The position numbers were made by a program, and so were the translations under genes. A stretch of DNA of 64,000 nt, from assembly GCA_003153435.1 (NCBI GenBank), contig PLYR01000050.1:29-64028 (forward strand), written 5' to 3'. The DNA is from Bacteroidota bacterium (lineage in GTDB: Bacteria > Bacteroidota > Bacteroidia > Palsa-965). The notes beneath the pieces are model-generated. The model saw only the letters and a program-made list of their open reading frames with translations, made no database searches and was not told the origin of the DNA. Positions 1,380-50,748 of the stretch are shown here, in pieces (the first letter of the stretch is position 1; each line of letters opens with the position of its first letter).

Positions 1380-1749
1380 TGGATGTATGATCTGTTTCTA
1401 TTAGGTGGTTACCCTGTTGTTGGTTGTTGAAATGATTGTCTGCAAAGTTGGGGAAGCAAAAGCTTAAACACTTACGCCAGTCTGACGATAAGTTACATGA
1501 TTCACAGATTAAAAAAATATTACTTAGTACTGTTGGTAAGCTATAGTAATCCTTCCTTTAATATCACCTATTTGTCCTGCCTGAATGAAGGCGCAGCTTT
1601 CCAGTTGCACCTTTCTTAATAAACCGAAGTATGCTGAGTTAAAATATATGACTTATGTAACTTATCCTTTTCAGCATATAACACTTCCACTGATGTGAAT
1701 ATCCACCTTTGCCATGTGAAACTGATTTCATAAATTAAAACCACATGAT

Positions 1750-3381
1750 ATGAAAAAGAAACTACTCATTATAAGTGCAGCCACCCTCCTGTTGGCCTTG
1801 GCCAACCGAAGTTTTGGACAGGCACCAAACCTCGGAACAGCAGCAAACTTTGCTCTGTTTTCTACTAATGGCGCTGTTAGCAACACTGGAATTTCTCAGA
1901 TTACCGGTAATGTTGGTACGAATAATGGTTCCAGCACTGCATTCGGTAATGTCAATGGAGTAATGCACGACATGGATGGAGTTAGTGGGAGTGCGCCGGC
2001 GTCTACAGATGTACTGTCAGCTTATAACCAGTTAAACTTTACCAAGGCTACCGTATTTCCTGCTCCTTTATTGGGTAATGGACAAGTATTAACGGCCGGA
2101 GTTGATTCGATTGCAAGTGCAGCCACTTTGAACATGGGATTAACATTGGATGGACAAGGTCATTCCAATGCAGTTTTCATTATTAAAATAACTGGATCCC
2201 TATCGACTAATGCGTCTGCTAAAGTCTATCTGATTAATCAGGCGATGGCATGTAATGTATACTGGGTGGTAGAAGGCCTTGTAAGTATGGCTTCTGGAAC
2301 GACCATGAGAGGAACAATCATCGCTAACAATGCCGCGATAAATATGGGTACAGGAGATACCTTGGAAGGCAGAGCACTTTCAATCGCTGGTGCTGTTTCC
2401 GTAAGTGGTGTCTTGGTGTATACTCCAATCGGATGTGGAAGCCCTCTATTGATGGGCCCAGCCGCACCTAATATGGGAGCAGCAGCCTGTTATGCAATAT
2501 TTTCAAGTGGTGGAGCAGTGACCAATACAGGTATAACAAATGTTACTGGTGATGTTGGTACTAACACAGGAGCCTGCACGGGCTTCAGCGCTTCAAATGT
2601 TACGGGTACGATTCATCCGGGTCCTGATGGGTCAACTGCACAATGTGCTTCAGATCTGTTGACCGCATATAATTACCTGCACACACTACCTGTTGATATT
2701 GAATTGTTATATCCTGCTCAGTTAGGAAACAATCTGGTTCTCACACCACATACCTACTACATGGGTGGAGCCGCAACACTTACCGATACTCTGATCCTGA
2801 ATGCAGAAGGAAGTGCAAATGCAGTTTTTGTTCTTCTGATTAATGGAGCACTTACCACCAGTACCTATGCCAAGGTCAAACTAATTAATGGAGCATTGGC
2901 AAAAAATGTTTATTGGGTAATGGAGGGCGCTGTAACTATCAATAATTATTCCATCATTAATGGAACACTTATTTCCCACAGTGGTGCGTTAGGTGCAGTG
3001 AATACGGGAGTTGTTCTTAATGGACAAGCGTTGACCACTGGAGGCGCAGTTACGACTGATGCAATAACTGCCGGAGCGCCAAGTATACCTGGGAATTGTA
3101 CCACCGTTGGAATCCATGAATCTAATCCGGCCAATACAGCAGCTGCAAATATTTTCCCTAATCCTTTCAACGGGGTTGCAACAATTGTACTTCAAAACAA
3201 CTTGTCGTTCGAAGGAACAGAATTCAAATTGTACAATGTAATGGGTGAGGAAGTAATGAATATTCTTCTTACTAATCAATCCACAACCCTGAACATGAGC
3301 CAGATGCCGAAAGGGATTTATTTCTATGAACTCATCAATCAAGCTAGAAAAGTTCAAACTGGTAAATTGATTTCCCAGTAA
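1750..3381 (+). CDS. T9SS-secreted protein with two tandem ice-binding-like (DUF3494) domains
   Basis: Signal peptide. Two internally repeated ~200-aa modules begin APNLGTAANFALFSTNGAVSNTGISQITGNVGTNNGS and APNMGAAACYAIFSSGGAVTNTGITNVTGDVGTNTGA, matching the DUF3494/IBP beta-helix N-terminal consensus. C-terminal ~80 aa (IFPNPFNG...KLYNVMGEEV...GIYFYEL) resembles a type IX secretion sorting domain. Confidence 0.75.
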   Translation: MKKKLLIISAATLLLALANRSFGQAPNLGTAANFALFSTNGAVSNTGISQITGNVGTNNGSSTAFGNVNGVMHDMDGVSGSAPASTDVLSAYNQLNFTKATVFPAPLLGNGQVLTAGVDSIASAATLNMGLTLDGQGHSNAVFIIKITGSLSTNASAKVYLINQAMACNVYWVVEGLVSMASGTTMRGTIIANNAAINMGTGDTLEGRALSIAGAVSVSGVLVYTPIGCGSPLLMGPAAPNMGAAACYAIFSSGGAVTNTGITNVTGDVGTNTGACTGFSASNVTGTIHPGPDGSTAQCASDLLTAYNYLHTLPVDIELLYPAQLGNNLVLTPHTYYMGGAATLTDTLILNAEGSANAVFVLLINGALTTSTYAKVKLINGALAKNVYWVMEGAVTINNYSIINGTLISHSGALGAVNTGVVLNGQALTTGGAVTTDAITAGAPSIPGNCTTVGIHESNPANTAAANIFPNPFNGVATIVLQNNLSFEGTEFKLYNVMGEEVMNILLTNQSTTLNMSQMPKGIYFYELINQARKVQTGKLISQ

Positions 3382-3400
3382 AAGCACTTTTCAAATTCTA

Positions 3401-3442
3401 AGCCCTCTTCCAAGGAATCAAATGGAAGAGGGCTTTTTTTTG
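3401..3442 (+). terminator. rho-independent terminator after the DUF3494 gene
   Basis: agccctcttcc / ggaagagggct 11-bp stem followed by T8, directly after the stop at 3381. Confidence 0.65.
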
Positions 3443-22315: not shown

Positions 22316-23365
22316 ATGAATAAAACCCTCATCGTGTTTTCTCTTTCCCTGGTTCTGCCCTTGCTGATGCTGTCACAGACTGATACCGTCAAAGCTAAAT
22401 TTGTCGATGAACAGGAAGCTGAAAAATATTATAATATTGGTATTGACAACCTGAATGCCAAGCGGATAGCCGAGGCTCTCAATGCCTTTAATAAGGCTAT
22501 TGAAGTGAAACCCGCATTTGAGAAGGCCTATTATAACCGTGGGTTAACTTATCAGGACATGCTCCGGAATAAGGAGGCACTCGACGATTTTACGAAGGCA
22601 ATAGAGTTAAACCCGAATTCAGATCTTTATTATTATAGCCGAGCTCAGGTAAAAGCGAGTGGGACGGATAAGGATGGAGCAATTGAAGATTATGGGAAAG
22701 CGATTACATTAAACCCCAAAAATGCGGAGGCTTGCTATTACCGTGGTGTCCTCAAATTTGAGAAGGAAAATTATGCAGGTGCCAGTGCTGATTTTACTAT
22801 GGCCATAGAGTCTAAACCAGATTATGCATATGCTCTTAATGATCGGGGTAGCGCAAAAAGGATGCTCAATGATATTCCAGGGGCAATTCAGGATTACAGT
22901 AAAGCTATTAAAGCCAATCCGGGACTGGCCTTCATTTATAATAACCTGGGAAGTGTCAAGAAAAAAAACAATGATTTGCAGGGAGCTGTGGATGCATATA
23001 CTACGGCAGTAACAATGAAGACAGATTACTTCATTGCTTATAATAACAGAGGAATTGCAAAATTCGATCAAGGCGATTTTAAAGGAGCTCTTTCAGATTT
23101 TAACAAGGCCATACTGCTTAATTCAGAATATGCGTTCGCATATAACAACCGTTCAGCCGCAAAATTTAAATTGCTGGATTACAAGGGTGCTGTGGAAGAC
23201 TGTAGCCAGGCTATTAAGCTGAATGGAGCCTATGGTTATGCCTATATGAACAGGGGGATTGCCAAGGAGATGCTGAGAGATGAAAAAGGTTCCTGTCAGG
23301 ATATGAAAAAAGCCATTGAACTTGGTGTTGATCAGGCCAAAAATTACCTAAGTGATTGCAAGTAA
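22316..23365 (+). CDS. tetratricopeptide-repeat lipoprotein/secreted protein
   Basis: Signal peptide followed by about eight 34-aa TPR units (AYYNRG..., AYNNRG... repeated). Confidence 0.8.
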   Translation: MNKTLIVFSLSLVLPLLMLSQTDTVKAKFVDEQEAEKYYNIGIDNLNAKRIAEALNAFNKAIEVKPAFEKAYYNRGLTYQDMLRNKEALDDFTKAIELNPNSDLYYYSRAQVKASGTDKDGAIEDYGKAITLNPKNAEACYYRGVLKFEKENYAGASADFTMAIESKPDYAYALNDRGSAKRMLNDIPGAIQDYSKAIKANPGLAFIYNNLGSVKKKNNDLQGAVDAYTTAVTMKTDYFIAYNNRGIAKFDQGDFKGALSDFNKAILLNSEYAFAYNNRSAAKFKLLDYKGAVEDCSQAIKLNGAYGYAYMNRGIAKEMLRDEKGSCQDMKKAIELGVDQAKNYLSDCK

Positions 23366-25554
23366 ATAAAATCATTAAAAAAGAAATGATGCTTCACATT
23401 CCAAAATACATATTCGCGTTCCTATTCTTTTCAAGCAGCCTCATCTTGAGGGCCCAAACCAATGTAGAGTTTGAGAAGGAAAATTTTAAGGATAAGAAAG
23501 ATCAGTTAAGGGAAGCTAAAAGCAATATCAAGCAGGGTGATGAACTCTATGCAACTGCTTACGACCACTATAAAGCTGCTGTAGATCATTTTATTAAGGA
23601 AAGTCACTATGTTCCAGGTATTAACGATATCAGTGGAGCCGGATCCGGAGATTTTGCAAATGCGGTTGGCTTTTATAAAAAGGCGAATGAAATAAACCCG
23701 AATAATGCTGACTTGAATTATAAAATAGGGTTTTGCCTGATTTGGATGCCTGCAGGTAAATTCGAGGCGCTTCACTACTTTGAAAAGGCATATCAACTTA
23801 AATCTACTGTTGCTCCGGATATTCAATATTATCTGGGCCGGGGGTATCATCTGGATCAGCAATGGGAGAAAGCTATGGCTGCATACAAGGCTTATATTCC
23901 GCTACTTGACCAGAAGAAGTCAGATGACAACAAGGTATTAATTGCAGATGTGAACAAAAAAGTGGAAGAGTGTGCAATGGGCCTTGAGCTTTCCAAACAC
24001 CCTGAACGTGTGTTTATTGACAACCTTGGATGTCAGGTTAATTCAAAGTATCCGGATTATGGCCCTCTTATTTCAACAGATGAATCTGTGATGATATTCA
24101 CCTCAAGAAGAGATAACACTACGGGTGGTGGAAAAGCAGAATCGGGAGAATACAATGAGGACCTATATCTAAGCACCTGCAAGGAAGCAGGAGGTGCCTG
24201 GGGGCCTCCGCTCAATCTTGGAAAACCTATTAACACTGAGGAGCATGATGCCACGGCAGGATTGTCACCTGATGGAACAACTCTATATATCTATCGATTT
24301 ACACCCAGAGATGGGGGAGATATATGGGAATGTCACCAAAGTGGTGATACTTGGACGAAACCGGAGCGGATGAATAAAAATATTAATTCTGATGCCCATG
24401 AATCAACGGTGAGTCTATCCTATGATGGAAAGACACTGTATTTCGTAAGCGACCGTAAAGGAGGAATGGGAGGAAAAGATATTTACCTCTCCCGTCTTGA
24501 TGCCAAAGGGAAATGGGGACCGGCCGAAAATCTTGGTGCGCCAATCAATACAATGTATTCAGAAGAAGGTGTATTTATACACCCGGATGGTAAAACGATG
24601 TACTTCAGTTCTCAGGGGCATAAAACTATCGGGGGTTATGATCTTTTTAAATCCACACTCGTAGATGGAAAATGGACTGAGCCTGTAAATATGGGCTACC
24701 CGGTAAATGGGCCAGATGATGATGTGTTTTTTGTAATCTCAGGAAGTGAACGGCATGGGTATTATGCATCCAAGAAAAGTGAAGGATGCGGAGAGAAAGA
24801 TCTTTACAAGATTACATTTCTGGGACCTGAGAAACCATTTGCTATGAATGCAGAGGATAATCTCCTGGCCAGCGTTGCCTCACCTATAAAGGCCCGGGTT
24901 ATTGCACCACCGATAGCTATTAAGTCAGCAGCTCTGACCATTCTAAAAGGAGTAATCACGGATGCACTTACTGGAAAGCCATTGGAAGCCACAATTGAGC
25001 TTGTGGATAATCAAAGGAATGAGGTTATAGCTAGTTTTAAATCAAATAGTGCAAGCGGAAAATACCTGGTCACTCTTCCTGCTGGGAAAAATTACGGGAT
25101 TGCTGTGAAAGCCGAAAATTATCTTTTTCATTCTGAAAACTTTGATATTCCTAACGCTGCGGCGTTTCAGGAGGTTACAAAGGATATTGCCCTAAACAAT
25201 TTGGCAGTCGGAACGAAAATTGTTTTGAGAAATATTTTTTTCGACTTCGATAAATCCACCTTACGTTCTGAATCCACGAATGAACTGGAAAGGCTTACCA
25301 AGCTGCTAACAGATGTACCTACCTTGAAGATTGAGATTTCAGGCCATACCGATAATAAAGGATCGGCAGAATATAATCAAAAATTATCGGAGAGTCGGGC
25401 TAAGGCAGTAGTTGACTATCTGGTTTCTAAGGGAATAACATCAGACAGACTTCAGTATAAAGGCTATGGTTTAACCCAGCCTATGGCAGGAAACGAGACC
25501 GACGAAGGACGTCAACTTAATCGCCGCACAGAGTTTAAAGTGCTTAGTAAATAA
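23356..25554 (+). CDS. OmpA-family protein with N-terminal TPR, TolB-like beta-propeller repeats and a C-terminal OmpA peptidoglycan-binding domain
   Basis: C-terminus NIFFDFDKSTLR...GHTDNKGSAEYNQKLSESRAKAVVDYL...NRRTEFKV is an OmpA_C domain. Repeated DGKTLYF/DGTTLYI WD40-like motifs in the middle. 10-nt overlap with the upstream TPR gene. Confidence 0.8.
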   Translation: MQVNKIIKKEMMLHIPKYIFAFLFFSSSLILRAQTNVEFEKENFKDKKDQLREAKSNIKQGDELYATAYDHYKAAVDHFIKESHYVPGINDISGAGSGDFANAVGFYKKANEINPNNADLNYKIGFCLIWMPAGKFEALHYFEKAYQLKSTVAPDIQYYLGRGYHLDQQWEKAMAAYKAYIPLLDQKKSDDNKVLIADVNKKVEECAMGLELSKHPERVFIDNLGCQVNSKYPDYGPLISTDESVMIFTSRRDNTTGGGKAESGEYNEDLYLSTCKEAGGAWGPPLNLGKPINTEEHDATAGLSPDGTTLYIYRFTPRDGGDIWECHQSGDTWTKPERMNKNINSDAHESTVSLSYDGKTLYFVSDRKGGMGGKDIYLSRLDAKGKWGPAENLGAPINTMYSEEGVFIHPDGKTMYFSSQGHKTIGGYDLFKSTLVDGKWTEPVNMGYPVNGPDDDVFFVISGSERHGYYASKKSEGCGEKDLYKITFLGPEKPFAMNAEDNLLASVASPIKARVIAPPIAIKSAALTILKGVITDALTGKPLEATIELVDNQRNEVIASFKSNSASGKYLVTLPAGKNYGIAVKAENYLFHSENFDIPNAAAFQEVTKDIALNNLAVGTKIVLRNIFFDFDKSTLRSESTNELERLTKLLTDVPTLKIEISGHTDNKGSAEYNQKLSESRAKAVVDYLVSKGITSDRLQYKGYGLTQPMAGNETDEGRQLNRRTEFKVLSK

Positions 25555-26196: not shown

Positions 26197-29100
26197 TTAC
26201 CTTGCCTCAATGAAATCATTAAGCAATTTTTTACTGTTTCGGGTCTTGAAGAAACTCATCGGTGAATAATTAATATCCTTATCCTTACCTCGGATGAGCA
26301 TGTGGAGGAACCAATCTTCATCAGTGTAGGATCCGAACGGTTTCGGAGTCATAGTGATCAATTGATATCCAAATTGTCCTGCAATCTGAGGAAAGAGATT
26401 AAAATTCAGGTCATCAATATTTGACAATTCTTCTATAATTATAAACTTAACTCCCGGACGTGTTCTATCTTTTTGAATAACAGAAAGTCGTCCGATACAA
26501 AGCAGAGCAAGGGCTGTGTATGCTTGTCCCCCGGATCCAGTATACTTAATCCCCACATCATCGAACAGACCAACTTTCAGTTCAAAATAGAATTTAGGAT
26601 TAAGAAGGTCGCTCAGTTCACAGTTCTTGATAGAGCTGAATGTTTTAGCGATGTTTACAATCAGTTTTTCAGGTGAATTCTGTGTTTTGTCAATATCTTC
26701 GATTTCAGTGAACAAGTCAGCTCCGAACTTCTGAACCTTTGCCTTTTCACGCATTTTTCGGATCCATTCTATAGTAATTTCCTTCTTTTCCAGGAATTCA
26801 ATTCTGAATTGATAGTTATTACTGATCCTGTTTTCTGTAAAGAAGAAGTTAAGCTCCGTAATAAGTTTGCGGAAGTTCTGGTACTGCCGGGCCACCTGGT
26901 CAAATACATTGAGGATAATTGTCAACTGCAGGTCACCAAATTTCTTGAGCTCCTCATTCAATTTTAGAAGTTCTGGGCCAATACCTTCCAGCCCTAGTTT
27001 ACCACAGAGCACATTCACCAGGGTCTGGAAATTGAATTTGTCTGTCTCCAGTTCCTGGTTTTTATTATCCTTTGTCTCATCAAAGGATTGGGCAATGCGA
27101 GCAAATTCATTTTCGAAATTACGGCGGTCTGTAACCGACTTTTCTGCCAGTTGAAGGATTCTTGCATTAGTATAATCTCCAAGATGTGGAAGGTCTTCCC
27201 ATTTGAGATTGGTGTCTTTTTCCAGATCATCCCGCTTCTCATCAAAGATGGCTTGCGTTTTTTCCAGTTCCAGCTTCAGTTGAGGTTCTTTTTCCTGACA
27301 GGCTTTGACTACTCCATCAATCGAAATCTGATTCCTGACAGCTGCTTCCTTTTCGGGTGCGGTTTCTTCAACCTTTCGTTCTAGTTGAGATTTCTGTGCA
27401 ATAATGTCTTCGATAGGCAGTGTTTCAAATTTGGGTTTGATCCACTCTACTTTGAAGGGCAGTTCTTCCTTAAGTTTGTTTATCTCGTATTTACATTTGT
27501 CGTTATCATCCAGGATCTGCTCAAGCTTGAGTTTGAATTCGGTCTGCTGTTGCGCAAGGCGAATTGCTTCCCTGTTAGCATTCTGATATTGACGGTCAAG
27601 TTCATCAAAGGCGCCGAGTTGTTCTTCATTCTCAATAAATGCTTCCATCACCGTTTTGTTCAGGTCCTCATCTATCTCGTAGGCTTCAATCTTTTTGCGA
27701 TTTTTATAAGCATCCGCCATATCAGCATTGTATCCTATTTCAAGAAGCTCGAGGTTCAGTTTGCGGATAAGCTTGAGCTCCTCTTCGGCATCCTTCAGGT
27801 TCTGGAGGATTTCTTTTTTGTCTTTTTCAAGTACCGTCTTAAGCTTCTTCGCATCGTCAAATTTTTGTTTGCCGACCATGGGAATCAACTCCCGAATTTC
27901 TCCGAGTATGAGCCAAAGTCCCCCATGTTTATCTGCCTCATAGCTGCTCAGAAGTTTCTGAGGATTGGTGGTGTATTTTAAGATTTCATCTTCCTTTCCT
28001 ACAGGTTTCTTGGTAGCAATATCCTTAAGGTGCATCAGAACGGATTCTTCCTCTTTGCTCAAGGGGCGTTTTTCACTTACAGCCCAATGGAATAATGAGT
28101 TTGCATTGCTTTTGTCATAAAGTTCAAGTAAGCCACTCAGTTGATCGATGGTTCGAGGCAATTCTGCAGCCTTTTCAGGATAATTCTTTAAGGCAGCAGC
28201 AAAATCACTCGCCCATTCGGAGCCTTCAAACTCGGAATAGCTTTTTATGCCTTTGAGAAGTTTCAGTTTTGCTTTGCGGTCCCGGTATTTTTCCTGTTCA
28301 CGCATTTTTTCCTGAGCAGCCTGCGCGCTCTGGTATCGTTTGAAGATGGGAGCAAGTTTTTCCAGTTCATTGACAAGGATGAAAAGTTCATTGGCTTGAG
28401 CTCTTTTTTCTTCAATCTTACGGTCACTCAGGGTAGGAATCAGGTCCTCATAGTATTTCTGCAGATGAGTGTTCACCGAAAGCAAGTCCTGATACGCCTT
28501 CAATGCATTTTCAGTGAGTATTTTTACTTCCTTTTTATTCTTGTCAAGACTTCTGACAGCTCCTTCATACCTTGTCTTGTTTTCATTGAAATGACGTTGT
28601 GCTTCAATGAAAAAATTATAGGCATGAATAGTATCTGCAGTCAGGAACTCATCTCTGGAGGCGACACTTTTGTCAAGCATCTTCTGCAGGGAGGTTAGTT
28701 TGGTTTGTTTCTGGTCCAGTTCTTTAATCAGGTCTCTGCTTGAATTATATTGCTTGATATAGTTCTCAAGTTGATCTTTTTGTTCTTCGAAAAGTGTTTT
28801 GATTTCATCATTGTCTTCGAAAAGAAAATTCTGAAGAGAGCGGGAATTTGTTACATCCAGTGTTTTGGCTCTGGAGAATGACTGAAGGATCTTCGCCAGG
28901 GCTTTCAGGTTAGTATCTTTGGTCAGGTCTATAGGCACAATGTGGTTTACGAAGAGTGTTTCGTAATAATTCATGATTTCTTCGTGCTGGAAGTAATCAT
29001 AAAGGTAAATATCAAAAGAAAGAGTGAGGTGCGCCTTTAGCTCCTTGAGTTCCATGACGGTTTTATTCGGTGCAAGGAAATCCGTAGCATGAAGAGGCCG

Positions 29101-29499
29101 GTCGAAATTTTCCAACTCCTTTTTGGAAAAATCGGAGTTCTTTTGAATGATAAAAGGCCTTACCGGGTAACGTGAGTTTTTGGGAATATAAACACCAATC
29201 GTCACGAATTTCCCTTTTGCCCTTTCAATATTGAAGAAGGCATAGGCATGGTCTACATAAGTTTTATTCAGAGGGATACCTTCAATTCTTCTTTCATTTT
29301 TATCCAGTCCTTCCGTACCTGGCTTCCATAAATCCCTTTTAGGGATCAGGATGAGTTGCATTAAGTCGGCTACAATCGATTTACCAAGGCCATTATCGCC
29401 GGTAAAATCGGTTCGAACCGGATGGAGGAGATAGTCGCAATTATTATGCTGGCGCACTCCTACGGTTGAAAGGGAATAGATCTTAGGATAATTGCTCAT
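26197..29499 (-). CDS. MukB/MksB/JetC-like SMC-family ATPase
   Basis: 1100 aa. N-terminal head with Walker A FTGDNGLGKS, then LIPK and ...IGVYIPKNSRYPVRPFIIQ, paralleling MukB GGNGAGKST...LIPD...KPFAIQ. About 700 aa of charged heptad-rich coiled coil follows. C-terminal head has the signature TGSGGQAYTALALL and a Walker-B-like KFIIIEEL. Confidence 0.8.
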   Translation of the reverse strand: MSNYPKIYSLSTVGVRQHNNCDYLLHPVRTDFTGDNGLGKSIVADLMQLILIPKRDLWKPGTEGLDKNERRIEGIPLNKTYVDHAYAFFNIERAKGKFVTIGVYIPKNSRYPVRPFIIQKNSDFSKKELENFDRPLHATDFLAPNKTVMELKELKAHLTLSFDIYLYDYFQHEEIMNYYETLFVNHIVPIDLTKDTNLKALAKILQSFSRAKTLDVTNSRSLQNFLFEDNDEIKTLFEEQKDQLENYIKQYNSSRDLIKELDQKQTKLTSLQKMLDKSVASRDEFLTADTIHAYNFFIEAQRHFNENKTRYEGAVRSLDKNKKEVKILTENALKAYQDLLSVNTHLQKYYEDLIPTLSDRKIEEKRAQANELFILVNELEKLAPIFKRYQSAQAAQEKMREQEKYRDRKAKLKLLKGIKSYSEFEGSEWASDFAAALKNYPEKAAELPRTIDQLSGLLELYDKSNANSLFHWAVSEKRPLSKEEESVLMHLKDIATKKPVGKEDEILKYTTNPQKLLSSYEADKHGGLWLILGEIRELIPMVGKQKFDDAKKLKTVLEKDKKEILQNLKDAEEELKLIRKLNLELLEIGYNADMADAYKNRKKIEAYEIDEDLNKTVMEAFIENEEQLGAFDELDRQYQNANREAIRLAQQQTEFKLKLEQILDDNDKCKYEINKLKEELPFKVEWIKPKFETLPIEDIIAQKSQLERKVEETAPEKEAAVRNQISIDGVVKACQEKEPQLKLELEKTQAIFDEKRDDLEKDTNLKWEDLPHLGDYTNARILQLAEKSVTDRRNFENEFARIAQSFDETKDNKNQELETDKFNFQTLVNVLCGKLGLEGIGPELLKLNEELKKFGDLQLTIILNVFDQVARQYQNFRKLITELNFFFTENRISNNYQFRIEFLEKKEITIEWIRKMREKAKVQKFGADLFTEIEDIDKTQNSPEKLIVNIAKTFSSIKNCELSDLLNPKFYFELKVGLFDDVGIKYTGSGGQAYTALALLCIGRLSVIQKDRTRPGVKFIIIEELSNIDDLNFNLFPQIAGQFGYQLITMTPKPFGSYTDEDWFLHMLIRGKDKDINYSPMSFFKTRNSKKLLNDFIEAR

Positions 29500-30139
29500 G
29501 GATATAATCTTCTGTTAGTTCAACTTCATTGATTTCGCGTGCATACATCTTTGCAAGACGGTCTATACTTGGCATAATTTCGAAGTGGAAGGCTTCCTGG
29601 TTTATCCAGTTAACCCATCCCATTCGCTCAAATTCGTTCAATGTACGTTCAATTTTACGTTTCACTTCGTCTTTTTCGTTAGGGGTATAGTTACGCTTGA
29701 GTTCTCCGTAGAGCAACCGCTGCCAGAGTTCTTTATGTTCCCCTTCTTCAGTAATCTGCTCGATATCATCCCAGGTCATTTCTTTTGCTTCAAAGAATTT
29801 TTCCTTAGAAGAATTCAACAGGAGGATACCGAAAACAACATGCTTGTCTTCAAGTTCCCTACACCTGTCGCGAGTGAAGCGGCCATACCCTTCTTCCGGG
29901 AAATCGAGGTAGAAATAGACATCTCTGTCGTTACTCTCCCTGCGGAGAAAACAGTTATACAGCAGCTCGTAGTAATTCTGAAGATGACCGTAGTTATCGT
30001 TTATATAATCCCATATTTTAGTATCGTAGCTGTAGTTCTGAATATGCTTTCCCTGTGTCAGGGCAAAGTTTGCTTCAGCAAAATACCGTATAGAGCTTTC
30101 TTTTCCTAGGAATTCGAAGGCTGAATTTTCATTCTCCAT
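29483..30139 (-). CDS. MukE/MksE/JetB-like small acidic subunit (putative)
   Basis: 218-aa acidic protein whose stop overlaps the SMC-like gene start by 17 nt. Position and size match MksE/JetB (DUF4194). Family not verifiable by eye. Confidence 0.45.
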   Translation of the reverse strand: MENENSAFEFLGKESSIRYFAEANFALTQGKHIQNYSYDTKIWDYINDNYGHLQNYYELLYNCFLRRESNDRDVYFYLDFPEEGYGRFTRDRCRELEDKHVVFGILLLNSSKEKFFEAKEMTWDDIEQITEEGEHKELWQRLLYGELKRNYTPNEKDEVKRKIERTLNEFERMGWVNWINQEAFHFEIMPSIDRLAKMYAREINEVELTEDYIHEQLS

Positions 30140-31434
30140 ATCGTTACGTCGTCGTTAAGGTTAAAAGTTCTTTCTTTTTCTATAATCAGATCTGCATCTG
30201 GATTTTTATTGTGTTGCTGGATGAGTCCGAAACAGACATCAATAGGGACTTCCAGATTTTGCTCAGCTGCATATATCTCGCTGAACCAGTCTTCAAATTC
30301 TATATGGCCACCAGCCTTAATCTTGACGTTGATATCTTCAATCCATTTGGAGATATGCTCTTGCCGGATGAGAACCTGCATATTTGCAGCCTCCTTTGCC
30401 ATACGCAGTTCCTCGTCTTCTGCCATTTCAATAACATCCTTGGGTATGACGTCATTGAAGTTAAGTTTAGGGACAAAACGGAATTTGCGTTTGAAATAAG
30501 GAAACACTTTCCGGTTGAATTCAGGAGGTAAGGTGATTTCACCTTCTATAGATTGCGCGGAACGGATCAGAGAGACGAGATATTTTTCTACTTTGAGTTT
30601 ATAGATCTGTTTGTAGCGTAATGAATCGTAAAGAGTTTTCAGACGCGATGAGGAGGTCTGGATCCGATCATTAATGGCGAGCACACGGCTATCAATGGTT
30701 TCGAAAAACTGTTCTATCTCCGCCCGGATCTTAAAATACCTCTCCCAGCTTTCCTTTTCCTTTAGAAAAGCAGGCTCCGCGTTCTTGATCCGGTCTAATG
30801 TATCTTGTTTGAAGTTAAGAGTCTGGGTGAGGCCCTCCGTTTGTTTTCCTATTTCGCGGAATACAAGAATGAATTTGTCGAGCAGTCCCCTTGCATTATC
30901 TACATCTGCTTTGAGTATGGATCTCAGTTCATATGTTTTCTTATCTACGAAACGCTGAAGATTTTCGATATGCCCAAGAATTCGTTTCTTGGCCGGGCCA
31001 TAGTGATTATAATACCAGTAATTCAGATTTTGGACATTGATCAGGTCCTCTTCAGTGAGAGGGAGTGTACGGCGGAATGTATAGATCAGCGGTAGATCGT
31101 CATATTGAGGCTGAACTTCATTAATTATTGCAGCGGTAAGATCTTTCGCATATACAGTGAGCTGATAGCGGTATTCACCCCCCCGTTTTGCAGTGGTATA
31201 AAAATATTGACTCAGTTTTTTGGAAATAGTCTCTTTCTGTATGCTTTTCTCCCTTCCAAGCATTTCGGCTACCTGATCAACGGTCTTCTCGAAGTCATGC
31301 TGGGAAAAGGCTTCGTCAATTTCTCCCTTTTCAATCTTATCGTTGAGTTCCATCAAAAGAATCACCGATTCCGGATTGGAAGGGAGTAATAATTCGTAAT
31401 TTCGGGTGATACTCTGGATCAGATCGCTCTCCAT
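30106..31434 (-). CDS. MukF/MksF/JetA-like kleisin subunit (putative)
   Basis: 442 aa, first gene of the operon, overlapping the next gene by 34 nt. Size and order match MksF/JetA (DUF3375). Assignment by operon context only. Confidence 0.4.
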   Translation of the reverse strand: MESDLIQSITRNYELLLPSNPESVILLMELNDKIEKGEIDEAFSQHDFEKTVDQVAEMLGREKSIQKETISKKLSQYFYTTAKRGGEYRYQLTVYAKDLTAAIINEVQPQYDDLPLIYTFRRTLPLTEEDLINVQNLNYWYYNHYGPAKKRILGHIENLQRFVDKKTYELRSILKADVDNARGLLDKFILVFREIGKQTEGLTQTLNFKQDTLDRIKNAEPAFLKEKESWERYFKIRAEIEQFFETIDSRVLAINDRIQTSSSRLKTLYDSLRYKQIYKLKVEKYLVSLIRSAQSIEGEITLPPEFNRKVFPYFKRKFRFVPKLNFNDVIPKDVIEMAEDEELRMAKEAANMQVLIRQEHISKWIEDINVKIKAGGHIEFEDWFSEIYAAEQNLEVPIDVCFGLIQQHNKNPDADLIIEKERTFNLNDDVTIWRMKIQPSNS

Positions 31435-45819: not shown

Positions 45820-47013
45820 TCAATGCGCATAATCAATCAGGCCCATAGCCTTCAATACCTTTCTTCCATTCTTTTTAATATTGAAACGGTATCCCACAAA
45901 GAAGACGATTTTTCCAATGTAATTCTCGGTATTGAACAGCCCTGGGTTGAATGCATAATTGTTGTCGTATGTAGCCATAAGTCCACTGAAAAACCGGAGG
46001 TTATCATATCGTATAGCCATCTTCCCGTTTATATTCAATGACCCGTTTAATGGCATTAAGTGAGATTCACCTTCCTTGCGGGTATAGTTGATTAGCTGTC
46101 CCCCGAATCCTACATTCAACGCAGCGCTCAAAATCAATTTTTTATATACATAGGTATAACCATATCCGCCACTGACTCCAAAAGTATTGACGAAGATTTT
46201 AGTTACTTCTGAAAACAAAGTAGAGAACTCATGAACAAACGGATACCTGATTAGGGTGGAGTCGGAAGAAAAAAAGCTTACACTGGAATGATAAAAGCCA
46301 GCCATAAAAGAACCGGCACTCTTTCGTTGGACATCTGTAAAAGAAAAGGCCCCTCTGAGAGAATATTTTTTGTAGTTAAAGATGAAAAGCGTGTTGACTC
46401 CAAATGAGAGCACTCCCACATCCGGACGAAGAATAATGCTTCCAGGAGTTTGAAGACTGAAATCGTCTTCGCTGGCTTGATGTTCATAGAATCCTTTGTA
46501 TTGCTGAAAGTTGACATCAGTGATTACCCTGCGACCGATGAGGGTGAGCTGATAATCGTGGCTGGCGGTGCTTCCTCTGCCGGGCCTGGCACCAAAAGCA
46601 AGACCCGGAGCAAAACCAAAGGTGAGGATGACCGTGCTGAAGTTGAAGCCTACCTGATAAGGATTGTTGGGAAGGAATTTCAGTCTTTCATGTTTCTGCA
46701 AATCATTTAGATTGAAACCATAATATTTCTGGCTTACAGGAAGGGTGAGGGTAAGATTCCGTTTGGTATTCAGGATAAAACTGGTATCAAAATCTGTTGG
46801 GTGAGATGACAGCAATTGTTTTACATACCACCTGTGGGGATACATCATCTTATCCCAAAAGGTTGAGTCAGGAATATCAACGTCCTGAAATTTGTGAATG
46901 AGTGTATCTGCGGCTGTTTTTATTGTGCTGTCAAGCTGAGCGTGACTTTGCTTAGATACTCCTGAAAGAATGAGCAAAGCAATCAGATATTTCAGGGTCC
47001 AGGGTCGTTTCAC
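45820..47013 (-). CDS. hypothetical outer-membrane beta-barrel protein
   Basis: Signal peptide, alternating amphipathic beta-strand pattern and a C-terminal aromatic residue (…IDYAH). Family unknown. Confidence 0.5.
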   Translation of the reverse strand: MKRPWTLKYLIALLILSGVSKQSHAQLDSTIKTAADTLIHKFQDVDIPDSTFWDKMMYPHRWYVKQLLSSHPTDFDTSFILNTKRNLTLTLPVSQKYYGFNLNDLQKHERLKFLPNNPYQVGFNFSTVILTFGFAPGLAFGARPGRGSTASHDYQLTLIGRRVITDVNFQQYKGFYEHQASEDDFSLQTPGSIILRPDVGVLSFGVNTLFIFNYKKYSLRGAFSFTDVQRKSAGSFMAGFYHSSVSFFSSDSTLIRYPFVHEFSTLFSEVTKIFVNTFGVSGGYGYTYVYKKLILSAALNVGFGGQLINYTRKEGESHLMPLNGSLNINGKMAIRYDNLRFFSGLMATYDNNYAFNPGLFNTENYIGKIVFFVGYRFNIKKNGRKVLKAMGLIDYAH

Positions 47014-47421: not shown

Positions 47422-50400
47422 CTATCTCACCCTCACCACCCGTTGAGTGAACGAGGTTCTGCCCATTGTTACCTTCATCATATAAACTCCTTCTCCCATA
47501 TCATGATCAGAGGTGTTCAGCTGATAACTGTATGTTCCGGCTTCCTGGCGTGGGAGAAGGCTCGAAGAAACCTCTTCTCCGAGCATATTATAAACCTGGA
47601 TCAGGATTTCTGAGGGTTCAGAAAGTGAATAAGTGACTTTTACCTGATCCCGGAAAGGATTCGGAGAAACATGAATACTGTTGCTATAAACCGCTGGAGC
47701 TGGGATCATGCCGGTAATAACAGAGCTGTCGGGGCGAATATGCATGGAATCAACCTTGTAATCGAGGTTTGGATAGCTCTGATTCGTGGTGATAGTACGC
47801 ACATACTCAGAAGTCATACCAAGACCAGGGATATCTACAAAAACCTCGAAAGTGCCGTGAGGGAGGTTAGAGAATGTATAGGTTCCATCACCTGCGGTAG
47901 TATGTTGTGCAATAATTCCTCCGGGGTGTTGTTCAAGATTTACATCCAATCCCGGAACCGGATCACCGGGTGCAAGAACAATAGGAGAAACGGTTCCTGC
48001 AGCATAACGGGCTACAAAGCCTTGTGACTGATATACTGCCCCCGACATAGTTCCGCTTCCGGAAGTTGGAGTCAGGTCGATTAGCTTGATGTTAGCTGTA
48101 TCGGCAGTGGCACAACCTGCATTCAGTACAGTGGCATTAACCCACTGGTCTGTGTTGGCATAATAAGTTTTGATTGCTCCAGGATACGTTGCATGGTCTG
48201 CAATAGCATAAACCAGGAAGTTGCCTCCAGTGGAACTGTTGAAGTGATAACGTCCGGCAGAGATGGCTGCACTATCAACCACCAATTGACGGTGAAGAAC
48301 CGTGTCATAAGAAACGAGGTAGGTCCAGCCAGCGCTTACATTGCCCGAAACAGAATCGATGACTGTTCCTGTGATAGCCGGTGAAGGAAAGCTGCCAACG
48401 GTGTAGTTTCCAGAAGTAGAACATCCATTCGCATCATTAATGGCGCAGGTATAAGTACCGGCACATACTTGAGAAGTAAGGGCTCCCGAAGGACCAGCAG
48501 GAGTCCAGGAATAGGTGTAGGCACCGGTCCCACCGGTTACTGTTGCGGAAAGAGATCCGTCACAGGCACCGCCACAGGAGGAGGTGCTGCCACTTACATT
48601 TACAGCAATCGGAGGAGGCTCAATAACACCTGAAGTATCCCAGTTCTGGCAACCGTTTCCGTCAAATACGGTACACTGGTGAATACCTTTACACATGGAA
48701 GCTAGGGTAACCGAGGTAGCTCCGTTATCCCAGGAATAGGTATAAGCACCGGTTCCACCCGTTGCACTCACACTAATTATGCCATCGCATAAACCGTTAC
48801 AGGAAATATTATGGGATGTGGTGACCACATTCAGATTTGGAGGATCTACGATAGTGAAATTCTGTGAAGCGGTACAGCCCCCCATATCCGTAACGGTGCA
48901 GGTATAGGTACCTGAAGCCAGGTTACTGGCTGTTGAACTGGTTTGTCCATTGCTCCAGGAATAGGAATATGACATTACTCCTCCTGTAACAGAAACGGTG
49001 GCACTGGCACCAACATAGCCAAAGCAAAGATTACTAGTCTGTGAAGGTGTAATAACAATAGCGGATGGAGTATAGATCGTAGTTGTTTGAGTTAAGGTAC
49101 AGCCGTTGGCATCTACCAGGTTGCAGGTATAAGTTCCCGATACTAATCCACTAGCAGAGGGTGTGGTTCCTCCGGTCGGAGACCAGCTGAAAGTCCATGG
49201 CTTGGTGCCTCCACTTGCATTCAGCACCGCAGTACCTGTTCCACTGGCACAAACAGGATTGGTGGAAGTGATAGAACCGCTAAGTGAATCGGGTTGGGTA
49301 ATTGTTACAGCCTGTGATCCAACACAGCCATTGGAACCTGTTACAAAGACAGTAAGGTTTGCGGCGATCTGCCCTGTAATGTTTGCCGTAACCGAAGTAG
49401 CAGCGTTGTTCCAGGAGTAGGTATAAGGGGTGATTCCTCCGGTAGGAGTAGCAGTGGCGGTTCCATTGGCGCCACCATAACAGGAAACATTTGTACTGGT
49501 TGCTGTAACAATCGGGGCATTGGCATTGGTGACGTGTGCGGTATCTGTGAGTATGCATCCATTAGCATCCGTAACCGTAACAGTATAAATCCCTGCTCCG
49601 ACAGAGCCCAGGAAAGCGTTGGTTTGTCCGGTTGGGTTCCAGGAGTAGTTGTATGGGGTAGTTCCTCCATTTACGGTTGCATTGGCAGAACCATAGGCCT
49701 GACCACAAGTGGCGGATGACATGGTAGCCATTGTAATAGTGATGGGGGCTGCAGGTTGTTGTATTGCAGGGTTAACAGCAACCGTACAACCGAGACTATC
49801 GGTGATCAGGCAGGTATAAGTGCCGGCAGGAAGGTTGGGACAAGAAGCAGAAGATCCAGAGGCAGGCGCTGTCCAGGAGTAAGTGTAAGGTCCGGTTCCT
49901 CCAACAGGTGATGTCCAGGCAATACCATCAGAGCCTCCAAAGCAGCTGACATTATGTGTTGGACTTTCACCGGAATTAAAAAGTTGATTGTGATCCGATA
50001 TAGTCACATTCAGCATATTACTGCAACCTAAGGAATCCGTAGTAAAACAGGTATAATTACCAGCAGTCAAGCCGGTTGGAGTAGATGAAGTACATCCAAT
50101 CACGTTCCAGGAATAAGTATAGGAACCTGAACCACCGAACGCAGTTACCGTGGCAGATCCGTTATTTCCTCCGAAACAGTTCGGAGAAACAGTGCTGGCG
50201 CTTGTGGAGAGGGGGGTGTTTTCTGTAACCGTAACCGTAGGTGTGGTTGAGCAACCATTCATGTCCTGTACCAGACAACTATAAGTGCCGGCAGCTAGAT
50301 TGGTTAATGAATCAGTGTATCCGGTACTCTGAATCCAGGAATAGCTGTAGGGGGTAGTTCCTCCTGATGGATTAGCGATGGCAATTCCGGTGGATTGTCC

Positions 50401-50748
50401 TCCGCAATTTATCTTTACACTCGTAGGGGCTGTTGTAAGTGCCGGTGGCTCAGTGATGGTTGCGGTATAGGTTCCGGTACTTGATAACATATCATGTACA
50501 GTAAGTGTATAAATGCCGGGAGCCAGTCCTGTTGCTGTTAAAGTTCCCTGACCGCCACCTGGGGCCGGACTCCAGGTATAGGAAAATGGGGGAGTGCCGC
50601 CAGTAGCTGTGCCAGTTGCAGAACCATTGGCCATGCCATTACAGGTAACCATAGTGCTCGAACCGGAAACCGTTAGTTGCGCTTTCAGTGTCTGGAATCC
50701 AGAAGTTAATAGAAGGATAAGTCCAGACAGGAGTATGGATTTTTTCAT
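47422..50748 (-). CDS. T9SS-secreted adhesin-like protein with ~10 SprB-type repeats and a C-terminal sorting domain
   Basis: Signal peptide. Repeated ~90-aa modules carry CxGxxNGSAT...GGTxPYTYSWxP...GxYTCxVTDxNGC (the SprB repeat signature). The C-terminal ~90 aa (SPNPFRDQVKVTY...IQVYNMLGEEV...GVYMMKV) resembles a type IX secretion C-terminal domain. Confidence 0.8.
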   Translation of the reverse strand: MKKSILLSGLILLLTSGFQTLKAQLTVSGSSTMVTCNGMANGSATGTATGGTPPFSYTWSPAPGGGQGTLTATGLAPGIYTLTVHDMLSSTGTYTATITEPPALTTAPTSVKINCGGQSTGIAIANPSGGTTPYSYSWIQSTGYTDSLTNLAAGTYSCLVQDMNGCSTTPTVTVTENTPLSTSASTVSPNCFGGNNGSATVTAFGGSGSYTYSWNVIGCTSSTPTGLTAGNYTCFTTDSLGCSNMLNVTISDHNQLFNSGESPTHNVSCFGGSDGIAWTSPVGGTGPYTYSWTAPASGSSASCPNLPAGTYTCLITDSLGCTVAVNPAIQQPAAPITITMATMSSATCGQAYGSANATVNGGTTPYNYSWNPTGQTNAFLGSVGAGIYTVTVTDANGCILTDTAHVTNANAPIVTATSTNVSCYGGANGTATATPTGGITPYTYSWNNAATSVTANITGQIAANLTVFVTGSNGCVGSQAVTITQPDSLSGSITSTNPVCASGTGTAVLNASGGTKPWTFSWSPTGGTTPSASGLVSGTYTCNLVDANGCTLTQTTTIYTPSAIVITPSQTSNLCFGYVGASATVSVTGGVMSYSYSWSNGQTSSTASNLASGTYTCTVTDMGGCTASQNFTIVDPPNLNVVTTSHNISCNGLCDGIISVSATGGTGAYTYSWDNGATSVTLASMCKGIHQCTVFDGNGCQNWDTSGVIEPPPIAVNVSGSTSSCGGACDGSLSATVTGGTGAYTYSWTPAGPSGALTSQVCAGTYTCAINDANGCSTSGNYTVGSFPSPAITGTVIDSVSGNVSAGWTYLVSYDTVLHRQLVVDSAAISAGRYHFNSSTGGNFLVYAIADHATYPGAIKTYYANTDQWVNATVLNAGCATADTANIKLIDLTPTSGSGTMSGAVYQSQGFVARYAAGTVSPIVLAPGDPVPGLDVNLEQHPGGIIAQHTTAGDGTYTFSNLPHGTFEVFVDIPGLGMTSEYVRTITTNQSYPNLDYKVDSMHIRPDSSVITGMIPAPAVYSNSIHVSPNPFRDQVKVTYSLSEPSEILIQVYNMLGEEVSSSLLPRQEAGTYSYQLNTSDHDMGEGVYMMKVTMGRTSFTQRVVRVR

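Follow-up and report, generated by a model that had tools for sequence, protein, structure and literature searches.

The closest described counterpart of the protein discussed here is IBPv of Flavobacteriaceae bacterium 3519-10, from the Vostok ice core, which was published as the "first multi-domain antifreeze protein" and whose structure is PDB 5UYT (PMC5673226, PMC3245957). IBPv is secreted and hyperactive, with a thermal hysteresis of about 2.1-2.2 °C at about 50 µM, and its ice-binding site has been mapped by mutagenesis, the site mutants losing activity (PMC5673226, PMC3245957). It has been recovered from culture supernatant and in the extracellular fraction, and it improved the survival of E. 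coli through five freeze-thaw cycles by a factor of more than 100 (PMC5673226, PMC3245957). It folds as a triangular, right-handed beta-helix of six loops with an alpha-helix as brace (PMC5673226), and an anchored-clathrate mechanism has been shown for it (PMC5673226, PMC3245957). Most of the thermal hysteresis comes from domain B, to which domain A adds, and the authors have proposed a different target ice plane for each (PMC5673226, PMC3245957). In domain B, Leu at any of four first-row residues of the site lowers thermal hysteresis from 2.1 to less than 1 °C (PMC5673226), and a bulky Leu in domain A has been read as a handicap (PMC5673226, PMC3245957). The C-terminal 88 residues are disordered in the crystal, and their contribution was called 'unexplained' in the structure paper (PMC5673226). 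In Arctic sea-ice metagenomes, double-domain ice-binding proteins (IBPs) are the second commonest IBP architecture, chiefly in Flavobacteriales (PMC9957290).

The 64-kb stretch of DNA analysed here (the window) harbours at 1750..3381, on the forward strand, a complete coding sequence which the open reading frame list gives as a single ORF of 543 aa, from ATG to stop (stop codon 3379-3381), with a precursor of 55.2 kDa. A predicted signal peptide, two DUF3494 modules (A and B), a short linker and a T9SS C-terminal sorting domain (CTD) follow each other in this polypeptide. Its sequence and predicted structure indicate that it is, with good probability, an IBPv-type two-domain ice-binding (antifreeze) protein, exported through the T9SS by an uncultured Bacteroidia bacterium. 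A single HMMER alignment joins residues 24-542 to residues 2-510 of chain 5UYT_A (E 2.6e-153), with an identity of 54% overall, 59% in domain A, 57% in domain B and 35% in the CTD. IBPv has the same collinear layout, from the predicted signal peptide through both DUF3494 domains to a C-terminal tail of ~88 aa, and the architecture is thus not new, having already been solved and characterised. An identical protein is present in NCBI/ENA on contig ERZ27254241:k141_1904310. Moreover, DUF3494-DUF3494-CTD is the usual arrangement in a very large Bacteroidota family, of which this protein is an ordinary member. It matches more than 3,400 database clusters and at least 597 GTDB species, and 81 IBP-IBP-CTD genes were found in the 80 loci examined. 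Among cultivable relatives, Flavobacterium luteum NBRC 112527 has an orthologue of 54% identity. Conservation was read from two sets, 46 close relatives and 81 relatives from GTDB species representatives.

The initial annotation proposed that two complete DUF3494 modules are fused in tandem, and the profile searches confirm it. In a Pfam search of the whole protein, PF11999 (Ice_binding) is found in two stretches (E 1.3e-68). When scanned alone, residues 24-232 score 119.1 bits over profile positions 4-203 of 208 and residues 233-452 score 125.9 bits over positions 3-205 of 208, each well over the gathering cutoff of 28.7 bits; this near full-length coverage by each half indicates that both modules are complete. 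Domain A is encoded at 1819..2445 and domain B at 2446..3105, both on the forward strand. [quoted passage not shown] Domain A is nearer to IBPv domain A than to its own domain B (59% and 45% identity), so the duplication predates the split from IBPv. The motif AANFA[LI]FS..GAV[ST]NTGI[ST].[IV]TG[ND]VGTN, which had been described as the diagnostic opening of each module, holds in module A (from aa 31) and fails in its strict form in module B, where the stretch at aa 245 reads AACYAIFSSGGAVTNTGITNVTGDVGTN and two positions differ (NF to CY). The C of this variant is the conserved disulfide cysteine C247.

The residues on which the activity of IBPv depends are retained. Its ten row-1 sites, its mutated row-2 sites and its four disulfide cysteines correspond here to identical or equally small residues, and conservation extends to the rows of the hydrophobic core and of the ice-binding site, the domain A Leu among them. 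Mapped from the IBPv mutagenesis paper, the predicted site of domain A comprises A42, A215, A196, L177 and S150 in row 1 and S44, S217, N198, S179 and S152 in row 2. In domain B, the predicted row 1 is all alanine (A256, A433, A413, A394, A367), accompanied by T258, T435, G415, T396 and T369 in row 2. Predicted disulfide pairs are C168-C229 in domain A and C247-C450 in domain B, equivalent to C165-C226 and C244-C443 of IBPv. These functional residues are near-invariant among the 46 close relatives, and in the set of 81 A367 is kept in 80, A394 in 77, A413 in 75, and C247 and C450 in all. L177 is invariant in the close relatives (46/46) and present in 70/81 of the GTDB-representative relatives.

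The AlphaFold (AF2) model of the protein, with a pLDDT of 82.9, is consistent with the expected beta-helix. Each half is modelled with stacked short strands and a single long helix, at aa 77-96 in the first and at aa 294-310 in the second, giving a predicted DUF3494 beta-solenoid. The best Foldseek match is 5uyt_A (E 4e-43, TM 0.88, rmsd 3.0 Å over 419 columns), and the roughly 30 matches ranked after it are all solved DUF3494 ice-binding proteins. The reading of the gene product as a DUF3494 ice-binding-like protein and T9SS cargo is therefore supported by profile scores, by the predicted fold and by a CTD that scores over its cutoffs.

The T9SS C-terminal sorting domain claimed for this protein is upheld by two models, the curated NCBIfam one and that of Pfam. 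This type A domain (aa 468-541, 3151..3372, forward strand) carries the conserved PNPF, G-x-Y-x-Y and K motifs. PF18962 (Por_Secre_tail) recognises aa 468-541 with E 5e-12 and 46.3-50.9 bits (cutoff 27), and TIGR04183 recognises aa 468-542 of the 543 with 42.1-47.9 bits (cutoff 23), whereas the type B model CHU_C gives the protein 13-17 bits, under its cutoff of 27. A low-confidence linker (aa 453-467, 3106-3150, forward strand) precedes the domain; in the AF2 model, aa 453-463 have a pLDDT under 50 and are followed by a beta-sandwich, for which Foldseek finds the CTD of NucA in its T9SS-bound form (8glk_D, TM 0.85) and the mirolase CTD. P470, N471, P472 and G522 are found in 81/81 relatives. 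No literature connecting DUF3494 with the T9SS was found in our literature search.

T9SS cargo must first reach the periplasm, and needs an N-terminal Sec signal peptide to do so. Residues 1-23 (MKKKLLIISAATLLLALANRSFG; 1750..1818, forward strand) are read from the sequence as such a peptide, with the classic n/h/c regions (basic N-terminal stretch, hydrophobic core, small residue at position -1), and cleavage would fall before Gln24. The AF2 model has a helix at aa 2-18, then low pLDDT at aa 17-20. Gln24, at +1 of the predicted mature protein, is kept in 46/46 close relatives and 78/81 GTDB-representative relatives, and the alignment to the 5UYT chain begins at the equivalent Gln (chain residue 2). 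The host lineage is Bacteroidia, in which the T9SS is widespread; its ThrS groups with those of Bacteroidia MAGs. A second type A cargo in the window, a SprB-repeat protein at 47422-50748, suggests that the organism uses this route. No core T9SS machinery genes were identified in the 64-kb window; on T9SS_PorE, an OmpA protein resembling PorE reaches 300 bits, under the cutoff of 600.

An intrinsic terminator at 3400..3441 (forward strand) begins 19 nt past the stop codon and consists of a perfect 13-bp stem (3400-3412/3423-3435), a 10-nt loop and a run of eight T (3434-3441); its RNA fold has -26.6 kcal/mol (z = -5.4), and 0/200 shuffles are equally stable. Such a strong terminator indicates that the gene ends its own transcript. 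A consensus terminator scanner missed the hairpin because its loop limit is 8 nt. Upstream, a weak sigma-70-like candidate promoter (TTGCCA, 16 nt, TAAATT; 9/12 positions matched) lies at 1709..1736 on the forward strand, 14 nt before the ATG; the upstream region holds three sigma-70-like sites and 6.8 are expected from shuffled sequence, i.e. fewer than by chance. The Bacteroidota-type TAnnTTTG element has no match in 1380-1749. Opposite-strand and out-of-frame ORFs of 62-132 aa also occur within 1750-3381 and were taken as by-products of the long ORF. The GC content of the gene is 43.6% against 41.9% in the window, and its GC3 (34.6%) is somewhat under that of eight other window genes (39-50%); base composition is not decisive as evidence on a recent horizontal transfer.

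The surroundings of the gene are not those of a conserved locus. Relatives often lie in multi-gene IBP clusters, but the window gene does not, and a tblastn search over the 64 kb gave the gene itself and a weak CTD match to the SprB-repeat gene only. Across the 80 loci, no tested neighbour is broadly conserved and no operon partners were found. Just upstream-lying Bestrophin-like gene and 161-aa ORF counterparts were met in 3/80, the DUF7793 gene on the downstream side has a counterpart in a single other locus (35% identity), and nth, the HTH gene and rplT have none. The MAG names of the relatives presumably point to glacier-fed streams, permafrost and polar sites, but also to aquifers, springs, temperate lakes and soils, so the family is not confined to permanently icy habitats. 

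As an IBPv-type protein, the 55-kDa precursor would cross the inner membrane by Sec, with signal peptidase I probably cutting before Gln24. Its C-terminal 75-90 residues would then fold as a type A CTD, be recognised by the T9SS translocon and, as in known T9SS type A cargo, be removed at the outer membrane. The mature protein of ~43 kDa, with its two DUF3494 beta-solenoids, would be released to the surroundings or, less probably, stay on the cell surface. Each solenoid would present a flat face in which a row of small residues (Ala) runs beside a Ser/Thr row, ordering water at about 4.8 Å and docking onto ice. Domain B, which combines an all-Ala row 1 with a Thr-rich row 2, would be the stronger module and the main binder; domain A, where the conserved Leu protrudes into the groove, would be weaker and may favour another ice plane. 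Inhibition of ice recrystallisation, thermal hysteresis and better survival of freeze-thaw would be the expected effects. The analysis shows the architecture, the fold and the retention of the functional residues; secretion, CTD processing and, strongly, ice binding are inferred for this protein from a metagenome contig of uncultured Bacteroidia.

The release of the mature protein is the step at which a different reading may be proposed, namely that the protein is a cell-surface ice adhesin and not a soluble antifreeze. Many type A CTD cargos are covalently joined to anionic LPS by PorU/PorZ and not released, and if the T9SS sortase linked this one to surface lipopolysaccharide after CTD cleavage, its two solenoids could anchor the cell on ice or maintain a film of liquid around it. 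Two binding faces per polypeptide favour multivalent attachment, and the ice adhesins described for Shewanella frigidimarina and Marinomonas primoryensis are based on DUF3494 or on other domains that bind ice (PMC9957290). However, the long extender or repeat region of known ice adhesins is lacking here, and IBPv, with the same CTD, gives a band of the predicted size in the cell-free extracellular fraction. Relative to filtered water, that fraction of the IBPv host increased crystals 13-fold, against 2.7-fold with washed cells, about five times as much. We consider surface display unlikely, and a released antifreeze remains the preferred reading.

A second departure concerns the use of the two domains. 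The initial annotation suggested that a duplicated face would change avidity, an idea that is partly addressed in the literature by the domain roles of IBPv. The bulky domain A Leu is conserved in the family while domain B keeps its all-Ala row, a pattern that would be compatible with selection having tuned each face to an ice plane of its own. The family-wide conservation of a Leu that weakens activity argues that the A/B asymmetry has been selected and is not accidental. It is nevertheless improbable, in our estimation, that the domains form an obligate division of labour instead of a simple doubling of avidity. The radical version of this proposal, in which one or both faces are tuned to an ordered surface other than ice, is raised because the family is present in many aquifer and temperate-water Bacteroidota.

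Least probable is that fold and export are the same and the ligand is not ice, which would make the protein an adhesin delivered by the T9SS, or let it bind another ordered surface such as mineral, polysaccharide or biofilm matrix, with an 'ice-binding' label inherited from a few polar homologues. Many of the at least 597 GTDB species with the family are presumably from aquifers, springs, temperate lakes and soils, not ice; expression of IBPv is constitutive from 4 to 25 °C; DUF3494 proteins have been described as 'ice-binding and substrate-binding'; and temperate diatoms use a related family of beta-solenoids, PF20597 (Choice-of-Anchor A), which presumably does not bind ice, for underwater adhesion. 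This reading may be set aside as distinctly doubtful, given that the protein matches PF11999 and not PF20597, that the diatom adhesins lack ice-binding motifs, that most habitats of the listed MAGs presumably freeze in season or are cold groundwater, that it shares 54% identity with a protein of demonstrated hyperactive antifreeze activity, and that the residues whose enlargement abolishes IBPv activity stay small here and family-wide.

Taken together, the IBPv-type protein of the window is one more sequence in a family for which structure, ice-binding site and secretion are already on record and the double-domain layout is known from metagenome surveys. For specialists in ice-binding proteins, two points may be of use, the conserved domain A Leu and the identity of the IBPv tail as a T9SS sorting domain. 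The C-terminal 88 residues of IBPv score as a type A CTD (46.6 bits) and are probably cleaved off in the native host, so that the full-length recombinant form used in assays carries a tag which may be absent from the mature protein.

Among other known systems, FfIBP (4NU2), ColAFP (3WP9), EfcIBP (6EIO) and the Ca. Cryosericum IBPs (9LHN and related entries) belong, per domain, to the same Pfam family and have the same triangular beta-solenoid with a side alpha-helix (Foldseek TM 0.77-0.85 per domain, 24-31% identity), but they have one domain instead of two and their crystallised constructs have no T9SS CTD. The protein is related to the IBP_CFB equivalog group without being a member, as it scores 86.3 bits on NF045625 ('ice-binding protein', 275 positions), where the cutoff is 400, and this shortfall counts against the main reading. 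A DUF3494 module inside a larger exported protein is likewise seen in SfIBP_1 of Shewanella frigidimarina (6BG8) and in further multidomain ice adhesins. However, they combine one DUF3494 with Ig-like extender domains, whereas here the extra module is a second DUF3494, and they come from Gammaproteobacteria with other export or anchoring signals, the signal here being a T9SS CTD. With T9SS type A cargo such as NucA (CTD 8GLK) and mirolase (CTD 8QB1), the likeness is confined to the sorting tag, a beta-sandwich of ~75 aa at the extreme C-terminus which passes TIGR04183 and PF18962 and has TM 0.74-0.85 to the solved CTDs, and the passenger domains are unrelated. IBPv is the closest characterised homologue, and the protein differs from it at several residues. 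Its domain B row 2 is more uniformly Thr (T, T, G, T, T, against T, S, I, D, S in IBPv), G429 of IBPv is Ala, and C276 and C299 are two extra cysteines. The host is a different, uncultured Bacteroidia lineage, and activity has been measured for IBPv, whereas the protein described here is known from its sequence and model.

The ORF listing of the window gives 1750..3381 (+) as one unbroken reading frame of 543 aa. Pfam assigns two stretches of its product to PF11999 (Ice_binding, formerly DUF3494; E 1.3e-68) and aa 468-541 to PF18962 (Por_Secre_tail), and in NCBIfam the protein exceeds the curated cutoff of TIGR04183, the T9SS type A sorting domain. Scanned alone, domain A (aa 24-232) and domain B (aa 233-452) reached 119.1 and 125.9 bits against a PF11999 cutoff of 28.7 bits, each over nearly the whole 208-position profile, and the final 91 aa scored 50.9 bits with PF18962. 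These matches confirm the two tandem DUF3494 modules and T9SS tail proposed in the initial annotation. The motif cited there is exact in module A but differs at two positions in module B (AACYAIFS instead of AANFA[LI]FS). No second DUF3494 gene was found in the 64-kb window.

A PDB sequence search returned a collinear, end-to-end match (query aa 24-542, E 2.6e-153) to 5UYT chain A. This is IBPv, a 54 kDa two-domain ice-binding protein which Flavobacteriaceae bacterium 3519-10, an organism of the Vostok ice core (3,519 m depth), secretes (PMC5673226). The 5UYT sequence was reconstructed from the PDB alignment, and its numbering was checked against the residues named in the IBPv paper. Identity to IBPv is 54% overall, 59% in domain A, 57% in domain B and 35% in the C-terminal tail. 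The two domains of the window protein are 45% identical to each other (204 residues, E 4e-46), so that each resembles the matching IBPv domain more than its own partner; the duplication is therefore old and the architecture inherited. The AlphaFold2 model, for which 46 sequences were aligned, had a mean pLDDT of 82.9, with low confidence only at the signal-peptide end and in the linker (aa 453-463). The top Foldseek match in PDB was 5uyt_A (E 4e-43, target-normalised TM 0.88, rmsd 3.0 Å, 419 columns), and the proposed DUF3494 beta-helix thus withstood structure prediction. The C-terminal part of the model matched the solved T9SS C-terminal sorting domains (CTDs) 8glk_D (TM 0.85) and 8qb1.

In the reading that we consider probable, the window protein is of the IBPv type. 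Export would run through the Sec pathway first and the T9SS next; the protein would lose its CTD and be mostly released, and its two flat Ala/Ser-Thr faces are predicted to inhibit the growth and recrystallisation of ice, with domain B dominant and domain A auxiliary.

The N-terminus (MKKK, a hydrophobic stretch and NRSFG-Q) resembles that of a signal peptidase I substrate, and residue 2 of the 5UYT chain, where its match begins, is the corresponding Gln. Secreted Bacteroidota proteins typically have an invariant Gln at +1, which becomes pyroglutamate by cyclisation. For the C-terminal domain the type A CTD models score above their cutoffs, and the type B model CHU_C scores below its own. Among 81 full-length relatives from GTDB species representatives, PNP and G522 are kept in all, and Y524 and Y526 in 78 each. 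In IBPv, no electron density was seen for the final 88 residues, and what they add to activity was called 'unexplained' (PMC5673226). This tail (5UYT residues 443-531; cf. aa 453-543 of the window protein) scores 46.6 bits with TIGR04183 (cutoff 23) and, judged by its sequence, is a T9SS type A CTD. A literature search found no paper connecting DUF3494 proteins with the T9SS. IBPv is found in cell-free culture supernatant, is expressed constitutively at 4-25 °C, and over five freeze-thaw cycles its extracellular fraction improved the survival of E. coli by more than 100-fold (PMC5673226, PMC3245957). It is unlikely that the window protein keeps the ice ligand but remains attached to the cell, as a surface ice adhesin, given that IBPv occurs in supernatants and that washed cells have a weaker effect than its extracellular fraction.

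The window encodes a second T9SS cargo, a 1,107-aa protein (47422-50748, -) that combines a T9SS type A CTD with seven SprB repeats and a CarboxypepD_reg-like domain. It may act at the cell surface in gliding or adhesion, and directly downstream of its gene is one for a DUF4421 protein (45820-47013, -). At 22316-25554 (+), the end of a gene for a 349-aa TPR protein overlaps the start of one for a 732-aa TPR/PD40 beta-propeller/OmpA protein. The latter is PorE-like, yet its best NCBIfam matches, CHU_0125-family OmpA (330 bits, cutoff 620) and T9SS PorE (300 bits, cutoff 600), are both under cutoff.

Each IBPv domain has one flat face, with small residues in row 1 (A41, A212, A193, L174 and A147 in domain A; A253, G429, A410, A391 and A364 in domain B) and mainly Ser/Thr in row 2 (PMC5673226). 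A364L, A391L, A410L and G429L each lower thermal hysteresis from 2.1 to <1 °C, T214Y weakens domain A, and L174A strengthens isolated domain A (PMC5673226). In the window protein, row 1 of domain A comprises A42, A215, A196, L177 and S150, with S, S, N, S and S in row 2, and row 1 of domain B comprises A256, A433, A413, A394 and A367, with T, T, G, T and T in row 2. The alignment shows that the cysteines of both IBPv disulfides (C168-C229 and C247-C450) are kept, and the hydrophobic-core rows conservatively so. Functional positions are nearly invariant both in 46 close relatives and in the 81 GTDB-representative ones; in the larger set A367 is found in 80, A394 in 77, A413 in 75, the four disulfide cysteines in 80-81 and Gln24 in 78. 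The main rival to the IBPv-type reading, a non-ice role as an adhesive or surface-binding protein, as the broad habitat range of the family and the adhesive use of the same fold by PF20597 proteins might suggest, is unlikely, since the window protein shares 54% identity with an antifreeze of demonstrated activity and keeps exactly those residues that abolish activity when enlarged.

The Leu of domain A (aa 177, nt 2278-2280, the equivalent of IBPv L174) is present in all 46 close relatives and in 70 of the 81. Given that this activity-lowering residue is kept family-wide, the asymmetry between domains A and B looks, from the alignments, to be under selection. Domain B has two extra cysteines, C276 (nt 2575-2577) and C299 (nt 2644-2646). 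C299 occurs in 42/46 relatives, with C276 alongside it in only two, and most relatives have cysteines at the equivalents of aa 84 and 409, both absent from the window protein; apart from the two conserved bridges, the family is therefore variable in its disulfide pattern.

RNA folding shows a strong terminator hairpin 19 nt 3' of the gene (-26.6 kcal/mol, z = -5.4), and no convincing promoter match was found in the ~370 nt of non-coding DNA upstream. The neighbours (a Bestrophin-like membrane protein, a DUF7793 protein, endonuclease III, a small HTH protein and the rplT-rpmI-infC-thrS cluster) are not conserved beside the relatives' genes, save for the upstream pair formed by the Bestrophin-like (PF14023) gene and an adjacent 161-aa ORF (54-1379, -), in 3 of 80 loci. 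In these (L004, L011 and L032) the pair adjoins the IBP gene and the Bestrophin-like protein is ~74-75% identical, which suggests that these MAGs are the nearest relatives, rather than a functional linkage. Elsewhere, a three-gene operon (26197-31434, -) resembles an MksFEB/Wadjet-type condensin, with ORFs of 442 aa (no Pfam match), 218 aa (MksE; PF21980, 69.6 bits) and 1,100 aa (MukB N-terminal domain); no JetD-sized ORF was seen after it.

NCBI and ENA already list an identical protein, on the 84,959-bp contig ERZ27254241:k141_1904310. A protein search found 3,404 clusters at E <= 1e-20 among 8,000 candidates examined, and the best 120 of these have 535-599 aa, 96-100% query coverage, 62-88% identity and both Pfam families. 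At least 597 genomes among GTDB species representatives have a relative; by record titles, the matches listed include Bacteroidales, Chitinophagaceae, Saprospiraceae, Sphingobacteriaceae, Flavobacteriales, Crocinitomicaceae, Paludibacter and others. The names of the relatives' MAGs presumably refer to glacier-fed streams, a permafrost mire, polar sites and boreal lakes, and also to aquifers and springs, so that the family would not be confined to permanently frozen places. The best matches of the ThrS encoded in the window, at 81-93% identity, come from 'Bacteroidia bacterium' MAGs, one of them a Rifle-aquifer bin, and include no cultured relative. Two MAGs labelled 'Comamonas sp. lk' (L026, CALRRW020000011.1) and 'Candidatus Saccharibacteria' (L071, CAVXOV010000044.1) carry Bacteroidota-type IBP-IBP-CTD genes, 58-60% identical to the window protein, which probably lie on mis-binned contigs, or else reflect horizontal transfer.

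The IBP-IBP-CTD layout was found in 81 ORFs of the 80 fetched loci. Further IBP paralogues adjoin the gene in 34 of the 80 (e.g. L035 2923-3669, L022, L045, L016 and L023), in the form of a single-domain gene immediately upstream (~250-280 aa), another copy of the IBP-IBP-CTD gene or, downstream, a ~940-aa IBP-IBP ORF; unlike these, the window gene is solitary. The DUF3494/T9SS interpretation of the initial annotation was correct, but the tandem duplication and T9SS tail that it flagged as special are standard in the family. The analysis also yielded two small results, the T9SS identity proposed for the IBPv tail and the family-wide keeping of a 'handicapping' Leu in domain A. An Arctic Ocean survey placed double-domain IBPs second in abundance among architectures, with 455 proteins, of which Flavobacteriales account for 278, and also noted tandem IBP genes (PMC9957290). 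The window protein is one of a known kind that is widespread and has a solved structure.
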